IMG/VR virus record: IMGVR_UViG_3300014913_000010
Source of the DNA: an uncultured virus (IMG/VR IMGVR_UViG_3300014913_000010)
Taxonomy: Duplodnaviria > Heunggongvirae > Uroviricota > Caudoviricetes
Length of the DNA: 64,000 bases
Reading direction: 5' to 3' (one strand)
This document shows, piece after piece, positions 5,531-39,424 of the stretch (position 1 is the first letter of the stretch; the number at the start of each line of letters is the position of its first letter). The position numbers and the translations under genes are program-made. The notes below the pieces were generated by a model. The model made no database searches. It saw only the letters and a program-made list of their open reading frames with translations, and was not told the origin of the DNA.

Positions 5531-6196
5531 TTAGAGGTTATCAAAAATAACAGGTATCAGTTTCTTTACTTCCTCATGCAAAGGAGCCATTACTTCTATC
5601 ATCTGAGGATGGGCCGCAGGACCACACCGCAACTTGAAGATGTGCCGCCATTCACGGAAGTTAGCAGTCCATACAATTTCGGTCTTGGTTGAGTTAGGTA
5701 GTACTGACCGGGCCTTCTGGGGCGACCATCCAGCATCGAGCAACCGGTTGTAGTCAATGGTCGCGCCTGCTATACTCGCCAACCATATATCTGTATCGGT
5801 TACTTTATCGCCTTTTACTTTCATCATCTGTAGTACATCGAATGCATTGTACTCCCCTTCTTTTAGATCCAACCATAAGGGAATGATAAAAGTACAGCCT
5901 CCCTTGTAGTTAACGTATCGGGTGCTTTCTTGACTATACGCCGCCAACCGGTGTCTTACTATCTCGTGAGATACTCCCCTATCACAGATAATACGGATAG
6001 TCATTGCGGAGTGCTCTATTACCGAGTGATGCCCCCGGTTCAATACCATTGCGGTGAAAGTAGTAGAAGATACCTCGTCCATTTTGTCTTCGGACTTGTA
6101 GCAAGTCCTTCCAGCCTGTTCGATCAACCTTAATGGATATTCACTATCCATTATAGCCATGATTTTATAGCCCGGCCTTACTAATTCCATTTTCAT
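5531..6196 (-). CDS. thyX: Flavin-dependent thymidylate synthase
   Basis: GHHSVIEH, RGVSHEIVRHR, SQESTRY, ARSVLP, NFREWRH. Confidence 0.95.
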   Translation of the reverse strand: MKMELVRPGYKIMAIMDSEYPLRLIEQAGRTCYKSEDKMDEVSSTTFTAMVLNRGHHSVIEHSAMTIRIICDRGVSHEIVRHRLAAYSQESTRYVNYKGGCTFIIPLWLDLKEGEYNAFDVLQMMKVKGDKVTDTDIWLASIAGATIDYNRLLDAGWSPQKARSVLPNSTKTEIVWTANFREWRHIFKLRCGPAAHPQMIEVMAPLHEEVKKLIPVIFDNL

Positions 6197-34148: not shown

Positions 34149-35576
34149 TTAAACATCAAACATACTATCTGGTCTACTAGCAGTATATTCTTGTTGTTCC
34201 TCGGTCTGTTCATTAGCACCGAGTGCGCCAAGGTTGTCTGGGTTACGTCTACCCTCAAACAATTGAGCACGTTGAATAAAATGCCGCAGTGCATCAAGTT
34301 GTTCGTCACTAAGTACTTCCATTTCAATCGTGACAGGATCGCTATTGTCGGTTGGTTCTACTACCGGCTCAACATCTGCCGGGGAGTCGTAACCTTCCGG
34401 TATAGTATCCATACCTAATGGGAATAACCGAAAACGCTTTCCAGTCTTTACTATATTGAAACCGAATCCCCACTTGAGATTCTTAAGGTTAGTCAATTGA
34501 CCACTAACCAATTTCAACTGCTTCCCACTTTCCAATCTACCGAAGTCCCGGTCGAGCATACTAACTATATCTTGCTTAGTACACCATTTGGAAATAAGTA
34601 TACGAATAATAGCGCCGGTTTTAATATCGGCTTTTGGTAGTCGTTGTTTTTTAGCATTGGGATGAATGAACTTTTCTTTAAAGTTAGTACATGCAATGCG
34701 CGACCGAGCCGACCGGATAAATTGCTGTTCGTAGTACTCGCCGGTAGTATTACCATCGTTATTAGTTCTGGAGGGTACTTGTTGACTAACTGCCTGACGA
34801 GCTTCAAAAGAAGTTCGTTTCAGCGAATCAACAAAATCTTGAAACCGTGAGCGATCATTAATTACTACACCGCCTTTAGTTGCAAGGTCAATCCATCGTT
34901 GAGTAATAAGAATCCAACTACTAATTTTTGCCCACTCGACTGTACCCGAATGCATACGAAACTCCAAAGTGTTTCGAATAGCATAGGACTTAAAATTCAA
35001 ACTACTTCTCCGTCCTAACTGATTACTATACCAGTCAAAAGGATTTTCGTCAGCCCTACACCTTCTTGTACCGTAATCAGACCACGGCTTGCAGTAGGTG
35101 TTGCTCAGTCGACTATCGGGCAATGCATAGAAGAAGTACTTCTCATCATTACGATATGCATTGACTACATTTCTAATAGTGTCAATCGTTTCCCCAGCCA
35201 TACCATGATGGACGTGCAGGCCGCAAGTCCTGCTTGCCGTAGCAAAAGGATTTCCGGTTCCATCATCTAAAGCATTGCAAACTACTTTTATGGCCTTCAT
35301 GCCTTCTACTCCCTTAAGAATAGGAGACACAATTTCCATGTTATGGGGAAACTGCCGACCCATTTGACTATTGAGTGTCATAACTGATCCATCTGGTTTG
35401 ATCTTCCATGTAGTAAAGTTGTCTTGAGCAGTGTCGTGACCGTACCGCCTAGTGACTACTACATCATGGTTGATCATGTTATCAGCAAAGTACTGCCGTA
35501 ATCTATCGGCAATCCTTTCCTCACTAACCGTGGCATGGCATTCAATCTCCAGTCCAATAGTTCTGTCCTCATTCAT
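34149..35576 (-). CDS. Putative amidoligase (COOH-NH2 ligase) enzyme
   Basis: TIGLEIE, W.IKPDGS, EIVSPIL, CGLHVH, SLNF, TLEFR.HSGT. Confidence 0.85.
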   Translation of the reverse strand: MNEDRTIGLEIECHATVSEERIADRLRQYFADNMINHDVVVTRRYGHDTAQDNFTTWKIKPDGSVMTLNSQMGRQFPHNMEIVSPILKGVEGMKAIKVVCNALDDGTGNPFATASRTCGLHVHHGMAGETIDTIRNVVNAYRNDEKYFFYALPDSRLSNTYCKPWSDYGTRRCRADENPFDWYSNQLGRRSSLNFKSYAIRNTLEFRMHSGTVEWAKISSWILITQRWIDLATKGGVVINDRSRFQDFVDSLKRTSFEARQAVSQQVPSRTNNDGNTTGEYYEQQFIRSARSRIACTNFKEKFIHPNAKKQRLPKADIKTGAIIRILISKWCTKQDIVSMLDRDFGRLESGKQLKLVSGQLTNLKNLKWGFGFNIVKTGKRFRLFPLGMDTIPEGYDSPADVEPVVEPTDNSDPVTIEMEVLSDEQLDALRHFIQRAQLFEGRRNPDNLGALGANEQTEEQQEYTASRPDSMFDV

Positions 35577-35658
35577 GCTGTCCTCCATTTCGCCGGTAGT
35601 AATACCGGCAAGTTAGTAGTTATTAATATTTCGTCTCCATTTATTATACACTACTTTT

Positions 35659-35713
35659 AATCTCCAATGAGTACTGCGAAAGTATTACTACCCTCGCAGT
35701 ACCGATGATGATT
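35659..35713 (-). repeat. Conserved intergenic RNA hairpin, copy 6 of 6
   Basis: Stem GGUACUGCGAGGGUA-GUAA-UACUUUCGCAGUACU. Confidence 0.85.
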
Positions 35714-35717
35714 AAAA

Positions 35718-36626
35718 TTAGTCACCGTAAGAAACTCGTTTAGGTGGTGGATTACCTAAAGCGGTTGCCGGTGCAGGATAACCTCGACGACCGTAGTAAC
35801 TATCTACTATATTGTTATAAAAGGCCTCATCCGAGTCCTCAGGATCGTCGTGATTTACTTCCCTAGTTACTACTACCGGCTCAGGGTCTTCTTCGTAACG
35901 TCCAAGGTTCGTAAACTCCATCGTTTCAACGTCTACCATGTAGTAGTGCAATGGCTTAGTGAAAAACGATTTTATTTTCTTAACCTGAACACTAGTAATA
36001 CCGGCCTTGTTAGTATACCGTAAAGCATCCTGCACAATTTGCTTAGTGCTACAAAATATCCGGACTCCTAATGAGTCCCGAAGGTCTACTACACACATAG
36101 GCCGGGATGAGTCACGTGCAAAAAGTACTACATTTTCAATGAAGTTCACTGCTATCATTGAGTAGCTTTGAACCGCATTAAGTAGTTCTTTAGTGAACCC
36201 TACTTTTTCAACGCATCGAAAAAAGGCTTCGGTATCACTACCACTTTTTATTTTCGATTTTACCCGATGCAATTTAGCAAGGTCAAACGCATCATGCATA
36301 GTACCGTTATGTACTATAGCCCACTCATCACCTACGAAAGGCTGAGTGTTTAATACGTTTACTTCACCCATACTAGCGTTACGATTATGACCGACGAACA
36401 GGCGACAATTCCGGTTTACTATTGCATCCTTGAAGTAGTCGCTTTGTTCCATGAACTCACTTGCCTTGATTGCTGATTTCTCCGTAAGTAGTTCGCTATC
36501 ACTAATAGCAAAGAACCCGGTTCCATCAGTACCACGAGTTTCTGAAACTACGGCAAGTACTTTCATAAACTTAGCAAGTACTTTCGGATCTTTCGGATTG
36601 CCTACATAACCATAAATTCCACACAT
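35718..36626 (-). CDS. Class II (Ntn) glutamine amidotransferase
   Basis: True start MCGIYG after AAGGAGG; RGTDGTG, GHNR.AS, NTQPF, HNG, DTE. Confidence 0.9.
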   Translation of the reverse strand: MCGIYGYVGNPKDPKVLAKFMKVLAVVSETRGTDGTGFFAISDSELLTEKSAIKASEFMEQSDYFKDAIVNRNCRLFVGHNRNASMGEVNVLNTQPFVGDEWAIVHNGTMHDAFDLAKLHRVKSKIKSGSDTEAFFRCVEKVGFTKELLNAVQSYSMIAVNFIENVVLFARDSSRPMCVVDLRDSLGVRIFCSTKQIVQDALRYTNKAGITSVQVKKIKSFFTKPLHYYMVDVETMEFTNLGRYEEDPEPVVVTREVNHDDPEDSDEAFYNNIVDSYYGRRGYPAPATALGNPPPKRVSYGD

Positions 36627-36822
36627 ATTATCCTCCTTTGGTAGTCCTCCAAGACTACCGGTTAAATTAACTACATTATCTTTACTACTTCTTTCAGATC
36701 GCCTTAAATGATCTGTTCCGCTCTCATCCCTCATAATTGTAAGTATTTAAGCAATTCACTTATTTACTTAATCATGGGATGAAACCATAACACATGATTT
36801 AAGGCAGTGGTAGTAACAAGAC

Positions 36823-37225
36823 CTAACGTGATCGTCGTAGTCGTCGGAGTCGACGATTTACTAACTTTTGTTTTTCACGATTTTTATTATGATAATGACA
36901 CACATCTAATTTAATTGTTTTAGTATAGCACATTGAATATGAGTAAACAAGATTTTTTGCTCCCCAGTTTCTAACGTGCGGTACTTTTTTAATCGGACTA
37001 CTTTTGTCGGGAATAGTCATAACTGGACTATTGCAATATCTACATATTTTCATCATTGTTAGCTCCCTTTACTATATCAATATCAATACCACGAAAAGTT
37101 TCATTATCTATTTGATAGTAGTTCGTCCAATTAGCATGGCTTTTTCCGATGGAGTCGTCGTGCTGATAAAAGCTAATGAAGCAATAGTGTTTATTGTTCA
37201 TTTCCATAAATGTAAAAGTATCCAT
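36823..37225 (-). CDS. Two small early proteins (36823-37056; 37040-37225, starting MDTFTF)
   Basis: GGAG RBSs; first ORFs downstream of the long leader. Confidence 0.55.
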
Positions 37226-37239
37226 TTTAGTACTCCTTA

Positions 37240-38167
37240 TAGTTAGGTTATAACAGGACGGTAGTTGTTTGCTTTTCCTAGGACTTTTATTATGCCTAGT
37301 ACTATTGAGGGACAACTACCACCCCAAGTTACAACGGCGTACAATCAATGGATTGACCAATTCTTTTCCTAGGACTTAATAGGCGCCTAGTACTATCGTT
37401 TCAAAAGGTCGCACCATATCATATACAACCGTGGGATTTATAGGGCTGACTTTCGTCTTTCCCACCGCCTCGGCTCTACTACCTGCGGATCTACTATAGT
37501 TGTCAACTTTTCCTAGGACTTAATATGCCTAGTACTATTGTGACGTGCTTTTCGATACCGGTACTACTAATGTTTTCACTCGCCTGCCGTCCCAAGGAGA
37601 TTTGGAGGATGGGTTATGAACTAAACCACCGGAGGAGGTGGATTTACTATGTCCTAACGGGTTTTATTGGTAGCACTAATCGTTTATAGTGCAATCGGCG
37701 CACCGGACGCCTACCAAAGTCGGGAGTGTCAATTAGTATTTCGGATTTGAACCGTCCAACCTTTCGGTAGTAGTTTTCTCATGGTGTGTTTGATCCATTA
37801 TCTATACCGGCGGTAATAGTTGGCATATACCGCACGTGGCGAATTTTGTTTCATTAAAGTTTTACTACCACGATTAAATATTAAGGAATATTTTAATTAC
37901 CATTCAATTAGTAGTTGACCCTGAGTCATTTATTTTTCGTTTTGACTTCGCCCTAGCAAGTTCGCCCGAAGGCAAAAAGTAGGAGTCAATCGCATCCATC
38001 GGATTTTTTCGAGTGCCGTTTCCCACGGCCCCCAAGGTCTACTAATTGTGTGAGCATGGCGCGTGAGGTCAACCGGTATCGAGGGTAGTACTAACGATGG
38101 TGCTGGTAGTAGTTGCCCCCGGTCCTAGTGACCCCCGGTGTTGCCGTGCTCGATATGTCAAAGAACT
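37240..38167 (-). ncRNA. Candidate large structured RNA / 5' leader of the early operon
   Basis: ORF-free, many stems with UUCG/GAAA tetraloops, long-range complementarity, three repeated modules. Confidence 0.65.
38156..38166 (-). promoter_or_regulatory. boxA-like antitermination element
   Basis: GTTCTTTGACA just downstream of the promoter; resembles boxA (GCTCTTTAACA). Confidence 0.45.
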
Positions 38168-38172
38168 GATTA

Positions 38173-38201
38173 AAAGTAACATTTTCAGTGTGTTATGTCA
38201 A
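38173..38201 (-). promoter_or_regulatory. Sigma70-type early promoter
   Basis: TTGACA-17 bp-(TG-n)TACTTT with AT-rich upstream sequence. Confidence 0.65.
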
Positions 38202-38219
38202 CATTTATTTTCATACCGG

Positions 38220-38533
38220 TCTAGATCGCCTTATATATAGGCCAAAAAACGTAATGATTTCATGGTGTTACGGGAGTTAAAATTATTTTCAAAATAATGC
38301 GCTTTTTTTCGCCTTATAACCTATTGGATTTATTGATAAAAATAGGCCCAAAATAGGCTAAAAAACCGTGTATTTTCGGGGAGTTATAACCCATAAATCC
38401 GGGAGATCCCCTCAAATTACCACAAAGTGGTATAAAAACGACCTAAAAAACGGACTACTACCAAAATAGGCGAAAATAGGCCATTTTTGCCATATGCCGG
38501 GAAACCGGGCAAATTGGACTACTAATAGGTCTA
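38220..38533. repeat. Non-coding region with short A-tract repeats (AAAATAGGC, CGGGA, TTATAACC)
   Basis: AAAATAGGC at about 38339, 38350, 38463 and 38473, with partial copies at about 38237 and 38525. Confidence 0.55.
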
Positions 38534-38758
38534 CTAATATTTGATTGATTCAGATAGGATATCGACAGGATTATAAGTAGAAGTAGGGGAAGGACAACTA
38601 TAATCTAACCACTCCACTAATTGGGAGTACTCATTTAAGTGGCAACCGATTATATGGTCTACTAATCGATTATAGTTGTCCTTATACCTACCATCTTTTA
38701 GTCGTCGAAATTTAGGCAGGACATATTTGCAGTACTTACATTGATAGACGAATGCCAC
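38534..38758 (-). CDS. Small C2H2-like Zn-finger protein
   Basis: CKYC...HIIGCH; GGAGG RBS, GTG start. Confidence 0.55.
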   Translation of the reverse strand: MAFVYQCKYCKYVLPKFRRLKDGRYKDNYNRLVDHIIGCHLNEYSQLVEWLDYSCPSPTSTYNPVDILSESIKY

Positions 38759-38761
38759 CTA

Positions 38762-39424
38762 CTAATCCTCTTCCCACTCATCTTCTTCTTCATCGTTGTC
38801 GTCAAATTCATCTGGAATTTCTTCCTCGCCTATATGGTTTAGATTACTTCCCTTTTCTATATCACTTGCTTTCCATCCATCGTTTACTAATTCTATACAT
38901 CGGGAGCAGTAGTCGTCAGTGATATCAAATCTTTCCGAATGGAGTGAGCAGTACCACATATCAGGATCGTGAGCATTACCATCATGCCGCCAGAAGTTCT
39001 CCCGGTAGTCATCCCACGGATCTACTTCCTCATTTATTTTGTATTCATACTTATCAATACGATCAAAATGATCTACTACCTCCGCTAAGGTATGGAATAC
39101 CGGGATACCCAACTCCTCACACCTTTTAAGTTCAGCCATTACTCCGGTAGATGTTTTCTCCCCTGATATCACGAGGGCGCACTCAGAAACATCGAGCCAT
39201 GCTAAAGTATTTTCGTAGTAGTCATTAATACCTAATTCTACTCCATCACGCCGCATCAACGTAAAATGGTAATCAAACCACGGCACAAACGGCGCAAACC
39301 CTGCGGCTAGTACTTCTACGCCTATTTGCATCCCTGACCGCATATTTTCCAGTACACCTAAAACGTTATCGGATGAATAACAACCGAGTATTGCAACCCG
39401 GTGACGTTTACTTACTACTGCCAT
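38762..39424 (-). CDS. DUF4406/nucleoside deoxyribosyltransferase-like fold protein with acidic tail
   Basis: PFVP, LAWLDVSEC, STGVMAE...A/C..LGIPVF pattern. Confidence 0.5.
   Translation of the reverse strand: MAVVSKRHRVAILGCYSSDNVLGVLENMRSGMQIGVEVLAAGFAPFVPWFDYHFTLMRRDGVELGINDYYENTLAWLDVSECALVISGEKTSTGVMAELKRCEELGIPVFHTLAEVVDHFDRIDKYEYKINEEVDPWDDYRENFWRHDGNAHDPDMWYCSLHSERFDITDDYCSRCIELVNDGWKASDIEKGSNLNHIGEEEIPDEFDDNDEEEDEWEED

Follow-up and report, generated by a model that had tools for sequence, protein, structure and literature searches.

An uncultured phage of marine sediment carries, within the 64-kb stretch of DNA analysed here (hereafter the window), a region of ~0.9 kb free of open reading frames, and the question raised by this locus is what such a region encodes. 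The first-pass annotation had read it as a giant structured RNA of unrecognised family that leads the early operon. Our analysis indicates that the minus strand from 38167 to ~37247 very probably encodes a conserved structured RNA, a multi-domain non-coding molecule of ~0.9 kb (Table 1), and the part of the earlier reading that posited a large non-coding structured RNA is supported by negative Rfam searches, by the lack of codon periodicity and by an excess of compensatory base changes. To our knowledge, very few bacterial or phage RNAs besides rRNA exceed ~500 nt with conserved complex folds.

Table 1. Positions of the element, its domains and its immediate surroundings in the window.
Feature	Position	Strand	Details
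Upstream spacer, outside the structured RNA	38202..38533	minus	GCCTATTTT repeats, TAGTAG(A/T)CC repeats
Predicted sigma-70-type promoter	38173..38201	minus	TTGACA 38201-38196, 17-nt spacer, TG-n-TACTTT 38181-38173
Conserved 5' box AGTTCTTTGACATAT (RNA AGUUCUUUGACAUAU)	38153..38167	minus	Predicted transcript start
Domain 1, 5' leader hairpin domain, weakly supported	38052..38151	minus	Closing helix 8/9 bp
Domain 2, variable, 144 nt	37905..38048	minus	17-bp covarying closing stem 38048-38031/37925-37905
Multi-branched core, 480 nt	37425..37904	minus	Includes GAC-GAAA-GUC hairpin 37457-37448 and long hairpin 37658-37613
Repeat hairpin module, copy 1	37497..37541	minus	AUAGUA-CUAGG-loop-CCUAG-GAAAAG, inside the core
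Repeat hairpin module, copy 2	37353..37399	minus	Not clearly matched in L001
Repeat hairpin module, copy 3	37262..37308	minus	Tip of the 3' long stem
3' long stem, candidate RNase III-type processing site	37247..37335	minus	8 + 14 bp; in the folds of both phages
RBS and first downstream ORF, 61 aa	37040..37238	minus	AAGGAG 37238-37233, ATG at 37225
Zn-ribbon (CxxC...CxxH) small protein, arginine-rich tail, candidate RNA-binding partner	36823..37056	minus	

The sole distinct relative that could be fetched is L001, an IMG/VR locus with neighbouring proteins ~65% identical to those of the window, and the conservation evidence presented here therefore comes from two distinct sequences (the window and L001), a sample for which an R-scape-type statistic is impossible. 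Scans of IMG/VR with sequence blocks of 26, 24 and 17 bases and with two protein alignments led to the L001 contig only, the 17-mer scan yielding eight loci (one true, seven coding look-alikes). The metagenome scan returned only L004, a twin of the window that is 100% identical over 5612/5612 bases, and GenBank phage DNA gave no matches to the element. A 19-mer scan of genome_contigs produced three matches, all of them due to chance. Neither nhmmer nor blastn matched the element at ten loci whose amidotransferase is 27-44% identical, their yield being a 10-bit biased match in L006 and L007 to the AT-rich upstream part; among the four closest amidotransferase loci checked, only L008 has an ORF-free gap (674 nt). 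In sequencing run X7, the region is covered by contigs ~90% alike, and the other runs examined had no such cover. The known range of the element thus comprises the two fetched lineages and the ~90% identical relative seen in run X7 only.

The DNA of the element is not protein-coding. The earlier statement that ~930 nt lack a credible ORF holds, since no ORF in 37226-38533 exceeds 43 aa in minus-strand frames or 54 aa in plus-strand frames; none of the single stop-codon reassignments tried over the region opened a long frame, and Pfam assigned a family to none of the six small ORFs. Between the core and L001, mismatches fall on the three codon phases without periodicity (40/44/42), vs 81/50/164 and 103/62/189 in two neighbouring genes, and 8 of the 10 indels in the core are not multiples of three, compared with none of 7 in the neighbouring genes. 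Single-base indels also occur in the ~90% identical relative. A protein-coding gene, standard or recoded, would be expected to show an open frame, periodicity and indels by three, and these were not found. Judged by sequence comparison, the 480-nt core is under purifying selection, with 27.6% of positions differing from L001 vs 56-61% at third codon positions in the genes on either side.

It is highly improbable that the region is a relic of a coding sequence or a very short one, such as the 16-19-codon ORF beginning MKQNSPR in the most conserved block, or that its apparent structure arose by chance. An ATG-led short frame does lie within a 27-nt invariant block in both phages, but this ORF is preceded by no Shine-Dalgarno sequence, the block is invariant at every codon position with no periodicity, and the downstream part of the peptide diverges at the very point at which a helix switches from GCGGUA/UACCGC to CGAGUA/UACUCG. 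Chance might be invoked as the structure is supported by two sequences only, yet it is contradicted by the shuffles and coding controls described below.

The covariation check suggested by the first-pass annotation was run on L001 with RNAalifold, and compensatory changes exceeded those in both shuffles and coding controls. Core sequences are 72% identical at aligned positions (126/456 differ). Among 84 consensus pairs, 20 are compensatory, 4 are single-sided and none is broken, counts that, like the energies below, must be read knowing that RNAalifold scoring itself favours covariation. Column shuffles gave 6.55 +/- 2.3 compensatory pairs (maximum 12; 0/100 reached 20), and the energy of the core, -64.6, was likewise reached by 0/100 shuffles (-37.3 +/- 4.6). 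Four coding controls had 14, 5, 11 and 10 compensatory pairs vs shuffle means of 10.4, 7.7, 11.9 and 12.1, showing no compensatory excess. Helices of the core include 37833-37828/37815-37810, 37737-37732/37571-37566, 37560-37554/37491-37486 and 37465-37461/37435-37431. When the structure was instead taken from single-sequence minimum free energy (MFE) folds, 14/57 and 17/53 changed pairs in the core were compensatory, and eight coding control runs gave 2-10 compensatory among 62-88 changed pairs. Full-length MFE z-scores are unremarkable (-1.30 for the minus strand and -0.68 for the plus strand).

Several motifs singled out by eye in the window fared unevenly when set against L001. The GAC-GAAA-GUC hairpin is invariant and lies within a covarying helix. 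The GCC-UUCG-GGC (37964-37973) and ACC-GAAA-GGU (37759-37768) hairpins are lost, and the supposed T-loop hairpin CGG-UUCAAAU-CCG (37742-37754) is broken (CGA...ACG); its CGGUUC pairs over a long range with GAGCCG, for which L001 compensates with CGAUUC/GAAUCG. A proposed helix at 37711-37717/37667-37673 is fully paired in the window (7/7) and survives in part, with 4 bp retained in L001, all of them double changes. The 11-bp pairing 38072-38082/37552-37562, invoked as a pseudoknot or alternative fold, is perfect in the window and missing in L001; 13/200 shuffles reach 11 bp, and its 3' arm is taken up by a covarying local helix. As for the assertion that tetraloops read correctly only on the minus strand, four 3-bp GNRA/UNCG hairpins indeed lie on that strand and none on the other (vs 0.81 +/- 0.87 in shuffles, 3/500 reaching 4), but this excess is not repeated in L001, where two were observed and 95/500 shuffles reach 2.

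Conservation of sequence is lower in the 5' part (38170-37897, 35% identical to L001) than in the core (66% by columns). Domain 2 is almost unalignable in sequence, although its length is 144 nt in the window and 143 nt in L001, and in its 17-bp closing stem 11 pairs have changed on both sides, 2 on one side and 4 not at all. The helix annotated earlier at its base (38039-38048/37905-37914) was confirmed in a MAFFT alignment, being paired at 10/10 positions in both phages with differing sequences. The alifold energy of this domain (-27.7) was reached by 0/100 shuffles (-4.7 +/- 2.7), and MFE z-scores are -4.64 in the window and -3.04 in L001. Domain 1 gave a different result: its MFE z-score is -2.79 in the window vs -0.90 in L001, and its ungapped alifold showed no excess and no covariation, 18/100 shuffles reaching its energy. 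The helix proposed to close it (38143-38151/38052-38060) is paired at 8/9 positions in the window and draws no support from covariation. The stretch running from the 5' box to the base of domain 2 nonetheless measures 122 nt in both phages.

At the other end, the 3' long stem is longer in L001 than in the window (22-30 bp overall range), with MFE z-scores of -3.70 and -2.44, respectively, and alifold of 37440-37226 gave -33.9 vs -6.9 +/- 2.6 in 25 shuffles. Its near-continuous duplex has the ~20 bp or more expected of an RNase III substrate, and it may be cleaved by such an enzyme. As far as two sequences can tell, base pairing is maintained across these diverged phages in the core, in domain 2 and in the 3' stem, largely via double changes.

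The pattern of G-U pairs fits the minus strand, and the orientation of genes and promoter agrees with it. This bears on the idea that selection acts on the DNA itself, through palindromes serving as operators or as single-stranded-DNA hairpins, RNA structure being a by-product. Each repeat does contain two 8-bp palindromes, e.g., TAGTACTA and TCCTAGGA, and pairing of the core is nearly strand-symmetric (-64.6 vs -62.9). However, compensated helices spanning up to 280 nt make no sense for protein sites on duplex DNA, domain 2 (minus reading -27.7, plus reading -13.9) and the 3' part pair better on one strand owing to G-U pairs, and the TAGTACTA palindrome is broken in L001 (TAGTACTG), where the hairpin is retained via a G-U pair. 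We regard selection at the DNA level as hardly credible.

Transcription of the element would start at the predicted promoter, whose earlier identification was upheld by our reading of the sequence and by its conservation, L001 retaining the -35 hexamer as well as the segment CTGAAAATGTTAC that covers spacer and -10. The combined motif occurs once in the window; it escaped a consensus scan, its -10 agreeing at 3/6 positions only. The conserved 5' box is likewise single-copy in the window at 0 mismatches, and 2 of its 15 positions differ in L001, the first base being G instead of A and the ninth T/U instead of G. The box called boxA-like in the first-pass annotation is thus present at the predicted start and kept at 13/15 positions, and it is a putative, partial match to the rrn/lambda boxA consensus. 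The claim that the element leads the early operon fails: six minus-strand ORFs lie upstream of it between 40828 and 38534, which places it ~2.6 kb inside the early arm instead of at its head. The nearest of these genes, ending at 38534, is a complete, conserved 74-aa ORF. Between this gene and the promoter, the upstream spacer is 36% identical to L001, gives no structure signal and holds a weak terminator-like hairpin at 38358-38346.

The repeats of this spacer have an analogue upstream in L001 (ATGAGTAGTTCC repeats), and they could be initiator or regulator sites for an origin-associated transcript, i.e., a replication primer or R-loop in the style of ColE1 RNA II or T4 oriF/oriG. The element sits in the replication and nucleotide-metabolism arm, with its own promoter and a long untranslated transcript, and repeats precede the promoter in both phages. 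Nevertheless, no initiator gene was recognised adjoining the element, the cumulative GC-skew minimum lies at ~40-41 kb, at the strand switch and away from the element, the repeats are not conserved in sequence, and priming leaves unexplained why the 144-nt variable domain keeps its length and stem. A role at an origin is accordingly improbable.

Within and beyond the core, three hairpin modules made up of direct-repeat families D1, D2 and D7 recur at spacings of 91 and 144 nt, with variable loops of 10-12 nt. Two helices surround copy 1, namely 37544-37541/37505-37502 and, with 2 compensatory changes vs L001, 37560-37554/37491-37486. In L001 its AGUA...GAA flanks persist around a different stem. 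Copy 3 is the best preserved (93% over 30 nt in L001, the other two being less well kept), and an A-to-G change in L001 makes a G-U pair there, tolerable only for a minus-strand RNA. A type III toxin-antitoxin or CRISPR-like unit would have tandem repeats of ~30-36 nt along with a toxin or cas gene; the spacing here is 91/144 nt, and no toxin or cas gene was found adjoining the element. Mimicry of CRISPR repeats by the modules is likewise disfavoured by their spacing and loop variability.

Downstream, in order, are the 61-aa ORF, the Zn-ribbon protein (77 aa), a glutamine amidotransferase and an amidoligase. The first ribosome-binding site, announced near 37235, was read as the AAGGAG listed in Table 1. 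The 61-aa ORF belongs to no PHROG or Pfam family and has no counterpart seen in L001, in which the first ORF after the element encodes the Zn-ribbon protein. A search of 5.8 billion proteins with the latter found two, itself and P0004; its arginine-rich segment lies at the C-terminus in the window and P0004 but at the N-terminus in L001. Its AlphaFold model (pLDDT 86.9, from an alignment of 3 rows) has no Foldseek match in the PDB at E <=0.001 (best E 3.6).

Our best guess for the function of the element is a processed stable RNA or an RNA-protein particle. Host sigma-70 RNA polymerase would initiate at the conserved promoter, the boxA-like box may help the long untranslated transcript to escape Rho, and transcription would continue into the 61-aa ORF and the Zn-ribbon, glutamine amidotransferase and amidoligase genes, a read-through that we infer because no terminator was found to separate the element from the first RBS. 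An RNase III-type enzyme could then cleave the 22-30-bp stem just ahead of this RBS and free a stable RNA, which would act alone or as a particle. The AGUA-stem-GAA modules may be protein-binding sites, with the arginine-rich Zn-ribbon protein encoded next door as the foremost candidate to bind them. That the element is such a released trans-acting RNA or ribonucleoprotein, and not a cis-acting leader, has in our estimation slightly less than an even chance. The fuller proposal of a founding member of a new class of giant ornate phage RNAs, which unlike GOLLD and ROOL would be made as the leading (5') portion of an operon transcript, freed at its long terminal stem, assembled with the Zn-ribbon protein and acting early, is put forward more tentatively.

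The main rival is that the RNA stays on the Zn-ribbon/amidotransferase/amidoligase mRNA as a cis-acting 5' leader, which could work by processive antitermination or anti-Rho activity (boxA-like box, nut-like hairpins and arginine-rich protein), or through mRNA stability or processing. With no terminator after it, the element may never exist as a separate RNA; it is contiguous and co-oriented with the operon in both phages, it has a conserved box at the transcript start and three related hairpins, and an arginine-rich small protein is encoded directly downstream. On the other hand, its ~0.9 kb in three domains far exceed the bacterial leader switches known to us, Rfam gave no riboswitch or leader match, and only one copy of the hairpin, out of three, is well preserved in L001. 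A simple switch of the downstream gene is also disfavoured by an RBS that lies unsequestered outside the structure, by a gap from the 3' stem to the Shine-Dalgarno sequence of 8 nt in the window vs ~29 nt in L001, and by a first gene that differs between the phages. We consider a cis-acting leader, in any of these modes, unlikely but deserving of attention.

How does an RNA of this kind relate to known systems? No match at gathering score was found in the whole window for any family of Rfam 15 (GOLLD, ROOL, OLE, HEARO, raiA and all others). At E <=10, positions 36500-39000 matched COG2908 RNA only (16.4 bits vs a gathering score of 58.7), and 4200-5700 of L001 gave 10 matches, all far below gathering (best 19.2 bits vs 82). 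The earlier verdict that the family is not recognised therefore stands at gathering and permissive thresholds alike, and since it matches no known RNA family the element is a candidate addition to the giant structured phage RNAs. A group I or II self-splicing intron was discarded, as Rfam gave no match, the upstream 74-aa ORF is complete and the downstream gene has its own RBS.

GOLLD is described as phage-encoded, with many members >800 nt, often near tRNA islands, and ROOL (Rumen-Originating, Ornate, Large) as a large, complex phage or prophage RNA that may act as an RNA-only assembly. Cryo-EM is reported to show GOLLD, ROOL and OLE as RNA-only multimers, homo-multimeric nanocages joined through kissing loops for the first two and a dimer for OLE. 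As in GOLLD, a less conserved 5' region precedes a conserved 3' region in our element, a likeness of layout only and not evidence of homology. In contrast to the setting reported for GOLLD and ROOL, no tRNA island is present (ARAGORN found 0 tRNA and 0 tmRNA genes over the 64 kb); unlike GOLLD, the element runs into protein genes without a terminator, and, unlike what is described for ROOL, it has a candidate protein partner encoded nearby. By analogy, it may be considered akin to the GOLLD/ROOL class in scale and layout, and it is a member of neither family.

Other likenesses concern its two ends. Arginine-rich motifs of lambdoid N proteins bind boxB-type hairpins, and RNase III processing hairpins occur in phage early transcripts, e.g., in the T7 early region. 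Like boxA/nut sites, rrn leaders and HK022 put, the element has an 11-15-nt box resembling boxA at the 5' end of a long untranslated transcript, followed by hairpin repeats and with a small arginine-rich protein encoded nearby. Its hairpins differ from boxB by their variable 10-12-nt loops, the known nut and put sites are tens of nt long vs ~0.9 kb here, and the repeat hairpins, one of them well kept in L001, lie 620-870 nt downstream of the putative boxA. That box is the one feature speaking for an antitermination role, which can only be suggested. As in RNase III hairpins, an imperfect stem of 22-30 bp follows the upstream RNA and precedes the first RBS, and related hairpins recur; T7-type hairpins separate cistrons, whereas this stem forms the boundary of a large structured RNA and its cleavage is presumptive. 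Lastly, the IMG/VR structured-RNA catalogue (PMC10690425) shares with our analysis a source in intergenic viral metagenome DNA and the logic of covariation. Its candidates span 29-151 bases and required at least three distinct IMG/VR regions; our element is ~0.9 kb and had one IMG/VR relative in our scans.

An unrelated RNA of GOLLD/ROOL/OLE scale from marine-sediment phages would broaden that class. With its cleanly bounded domains, its likely processing site and its candidate protein partner, the element would therefore be a tractable new structural object, for which in vitro transcription, chemical probing and cryo-EM require no host. It also illustrates that a rare element with one diverged relative is testable by pairwise compensatory counts against shuffles and coding controls.

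Two minor observations concern the repeat modules. A sponge with many UAGUA sites was considered and dropped, as this pentamer is only ~2-fold enriched locally and is common throughout the window (~5 per kb, on either strand). The palindromic hexamers AGUACU and CCUAGG are present in the modules.

The stretch is non-coding and under selection, its pairing is kept by compensation, and the minus strand gives the best reading. The first-pass annotation saw no credible ORF over about 930 nt, and none lies in the whole 1.3 kb separating the stop codon (38534) of a conserved 74-aa gene from the ATG at 37225: no minus-strand frame exceeds 43 aa and no plus-strand frame 54 aa, reading any single stop codon as sense opened no convincing frame, and none of the six small ORFs tested against Pfam has a family. 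Comparison was made with L001, a locus on an 83-kb IMG/VR contig that has the same gene order as the window and an amidotransferase 65-67% identical to that of the window. Of 456 aligned positions in the 480-nt core (37905-37425), 126 differ (27.6%, against 56-61% at third codon positions of the two neighbouring genes). These differences fall 40/44/42 by codon phase, and 8 of 10 indels have lengths not divisible by three; the neighbouring genes show phase differences of 81/50/164 and 103/62/189, and all 7 of their indels stay in frame. Chance or micro-ORFs would be a very improbable explanation beside these counts. Several core blocks are invariant, for example the 27-nt ACTTTAATGAAACAAAATTCGCCACGT, and only 35-36% identity to L001 is found upstream of the promoter (38533-38202) and in the 5′ part of the transcript (38170-37897).

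RNAalifold applied to the core of both phages gave 84 pairs at -64.6 kcal/mol, comprising 60 unchanged pairs, 4 one-sided changes, 20 double changes and no broken pair. Because RNAalifold itself rewards covariation, three controls were run. Column shuffles preserving the pattern of identical, different and gapped columns (n = 100) averaged -37.3 ± 4.6 kcal/mol and 6.55 ± 2.3 double changes (maximum 12), and none reached the observed values. Four coding stretches from the same two phages, treated identically, gave 14, 5, 11, and 10 double changes where their own shuffles averaged 10.4, 7.7, 11.9, and 12.1, with many more one-sided changes (9-21) than the core. Lastly, the MFE structure of one sequence alone was tested on the other: in the core, 14 of 57 and 17 of 53 changed pairs were double changes, compared with 2-10 of 62-88 in eight control runs; 32 and 28 core pairs were broken, as expected for a 480-nt single-sequence fold. 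The structured RNA put forward by the first-pass annotation therefore shows, in one relative (L001), a compensatory excess in its core over both shuffles and coding controls.

Predicted features of the element (all on the minus strand) and their state in the two phages; the five core helices are the best ones
Feature	Coordinates	Window	L001	Remark
Promoter	38201-38173	TTGACA (38201-38196), 17 nt, TG-n-TACTTT (38181-38173)	-35 hexamer and segment CTGAAAATGTTAC kept	
Helix b	38048-38039/37914-37905	CAAUUAGUAG/CUACUAAUUG, paired 10/10	UGACAUGGUG/UACCAUGUCG, paired 10/10	plain MAFFT alignment for L001
Core helix	37833-37828/37815-37810	GCGGUA/UACCGC	CGAGUA/UACUCG	
Core helix	37737-37732/37571-37566	ACUAAU/AUUAGU	CCUACA/UGUAGG	
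Core helix	37560-37554/37491-37486			covarying pairs; among the best
Core helix	37465-37461/37435-37431			covarying pairs; among the best
Core helix	37754-37749/37476-37471			covarying pairs; among the best
Candidate pseudoknot (a lead)	37823-37818/37761-37756	CCAACU/GGUUGG		one double change
Variable hairpin, tip	37717-37667	CGG-UGCG-CCG	UGA-GUAA-UCA	
Hairpin	37658-37613	loop 6 nt	loop 16 nt	stem invariant
Direct repeat, copy 1	37541-37497		AGUA and GAA flanks kept around a different short stem	
Direct repeat, copy 2	37399-37353		no clear counterpart	
Direct repeat, copy 3	37308-37262		kept	A-to-G change in L001 makes a G-U pair
3′ long imperfect stem	37335-37247	8 + 14 bp	longer	tip is repeat copy 3

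Judged from sequence, the strongest single piece of evidence is the predicted helix b, which the first-pass annotation had already drawn; with its extension it makes a 17-bp stem of 11 double changes, 2 single changes and 4 unchanged pairs. Domain 2, which it closes, measures 144 nt in the window, against 143 nt in L001, despite barely alignable sequence. Its alifold energy is -27.7 vs -4.7 ± 2.7 in shuffles (0 of 100 reach it), in an alignment whose single gap was positioned for the best energy, to the advantage of the inner pairs and not of the outer stem; the plus reading gives only -13.9, and MFE z-scores against shuffles are -4.64 and -3.04 in the two phages. At the 3′ end, segment 37440-37226 scores -33.9 vs -6.9 ± 2.6 in 25 shuffles, and a second MAFFT alignment of a slightly different segment gives -15.7 on the minus reading vs -4.2 on the plus reading. 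Set beside these strand differences, an element acting at the DNA level is given very little credence. Domain 1 (the first 122 nt) is equally long in the two phages, with its closing helix at matching offsets; it shows no covariation between window and L001 and a z of only -0.90 in L001, and is unproven as a conserved structure. The three repeat modules share the pattern AUAGUA-CUAGG-(10-12 nt)-CCUAG-GAAAAG, in which AGUA opposite GAA presumably recalls the loop E/sarcin-ricin motif, and the window has no further copy.

Smaller motifs proposed by the first-pass annotation fared unevenly. The minus-strand tetraloop bias is real in the window (four 3-bp GNRA/UNCG hairpins vs none on the plus strand; 3 of 500 shuffles reach four), and L001 has no such excess, its two hairpins being reached by 95 of 500 shuffles. 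There, GAC-GAAA-GUC is kept, GCC-UUCG-GGC and ACC-GAAA-GGU are not kept, and the supposed T-loop hairpin is broken. The perfect 11-bp pairing about 510 nt apart is absent from L001 and matched by 13 of 200 shuffles.

The promoter is present as originally described; a consensus scan omits it because its -10 is weak. Transcription would start at about 38167, and the conserved 5′ box AGUUCUUUGACAUAU, which we take to resemble boxA, could recruit Nus factors, which an untranslated RNA of 0.9 kb would require to withstand Rho. A transcript priming an origin of replication is improbable. Since no terminator was found after the element, its RNA would form the 5′ portion of the operon message; at 22-30 bp, the duplex at its end is of the size required by RNase III, and a cut there would release the RNA. 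No structure occludes the RBS, and both the distance of the RBS from the structure (8 nt from the 3′ stem to the Shine-Dalgarno in the window vs ~29 nt in L001) and the identity of the first gene differ between the phages. For these reasons, a free, stable RNA or RNA-protein particle, tentatively the leading reading, is rated above a cis-acting leader, which seems rather unlikely. A possible partner of such an RNA is the Zn-ribbon protein, whose gene lies just downstream (36823-37056, minus strand; 5588-5854, plus strand, in L001). Its arginine-rich segment is C-terminal in the window and in the related protein P0004 and N-terminal in L001, so that the motif was kept while its position moved; no fold relatives of its model were found.

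The first-pass annotation recognised no family, and Rfam holds none that fits the element of either phage, even with E allowed up to 10. The element resembles GOLLD in size, phage origin, and conserved-3′/variable-5′ layout, but membership tests place it in neither GOLLD, ROOL, nor any other Rfam family, and its context differs from theirs in being fused to an operon and free of tRNAs (no tRNA or tmRNA in 64 kb). The element is filed as a "large ornate phage RNA of unknown function" outside these families. A published IMG/VR catalogue of candidate viral RNAs describes motifs of 29-151 bases, each in at least 3 regions (PMC10690425). An intron between exon halves was rejected, the upstream 74-aa gene being complete and conserved and the downstream gene having its own RBS.

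The comparative evidence consists of two sequences, window and L001, and this depth is its main weakness; among the public runs listed as containing the phage, none is of RNA. The sole metagenome match, L004, adds nothing because it is a 100% twin of the window over 5612/5612 bases. Scans of IMG/VR and GTDB genomes, or with two protein alignments, found no further copies; none of ten loci whose amidotransferases are 27-44% identical matches the element region, and of the four of these inspected for ORF-free gaps (L006-L009), only L008 has one, of 674 nt. Contigs in sequencing run X7 are ~90% alike over the region; the differences listed include single-base indels at 37932, 37956, 38131, 38219, and 38236.

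The window derives from an uncultured tailed phage whose DNA is also present in sediment and marine metagenome runs; it has no close GenBank phage (portal ≤32% identical to any record), and the element region matched no GenBank phage DNA. Small and large terminase, portal, and head genes lie on the plus strand from ~41.1 kb, and a long minus-strand arm (40828 to ~1.8 kb) carries a helicase, a glutamine amidotransferase, and an amidoligase, among others. The element does not lead this arm as first claimed: six minus-strand ORFs lie upstream. The class-II amidotransferase and the amidoligase adjoin each other (34149-36626, minus strand), and a nucleoside 2-deoxyribosyltransferase-like protein is encoded further upstream (38762-39424); such gene sets are linked to phage nucleotide or DNA modification. 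The amidotransferase ORF is listed as 338 aa from 36734, yet homology and the catalytic N-terminal Cys begin only at MCGI (36626), the true start, so that ~200 nt upstream are probably untranslated. Between this start and the Zn-ribbon ORF (36626-36823, minus strand) lies a 30-nt inverted repeat (36701-36730/36776-36805, 80% complementary). Directly 3′ of the element, a 61-aa ORF with a strong RBS (37040-37225, minus strand) has no counterpart seen in L001, where the first ORF is the Zn-ribbon protein.

Short direct repeats differing in sequence precede the promoter in both phages: in the window (38339-38538, minus strand) GCCTATTTT occurs four or five times, one pair forming a weak terminator-like hairpin (38358-38346), and TAGTAG(A/T)CC three times; in L001 (4234-4314, plus strand) ATGAGTAGTTCC-like words occur three times. 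A perfect 16-bp inverted repeat, AAGGACAACTATAATC/GATTATAGTTGTCCTT (38590-38605 and 38668-38683, 62 nt between arms), lies inside the 74-aa gene and overlaps a promoter-like site (38597-38570); no equivalent is listed in L001. Related words, GACAACTA/TAGTTGTC, reappear next to repeat copy 1 and within the arms of the 3′ long stem; the inverted repeat could serve as another processing site of the long-stem type or as a pair of operators. Finally, the 64 kb hold 339 minus-strand and 305 plus-strand copies of the pentamer TAGTA (~5 per kb), apparently several-fold above a rough composition-based expectation; this enrichment is genome-wide and not specific to the element, and DNA modification or recognition sites are possible causes.
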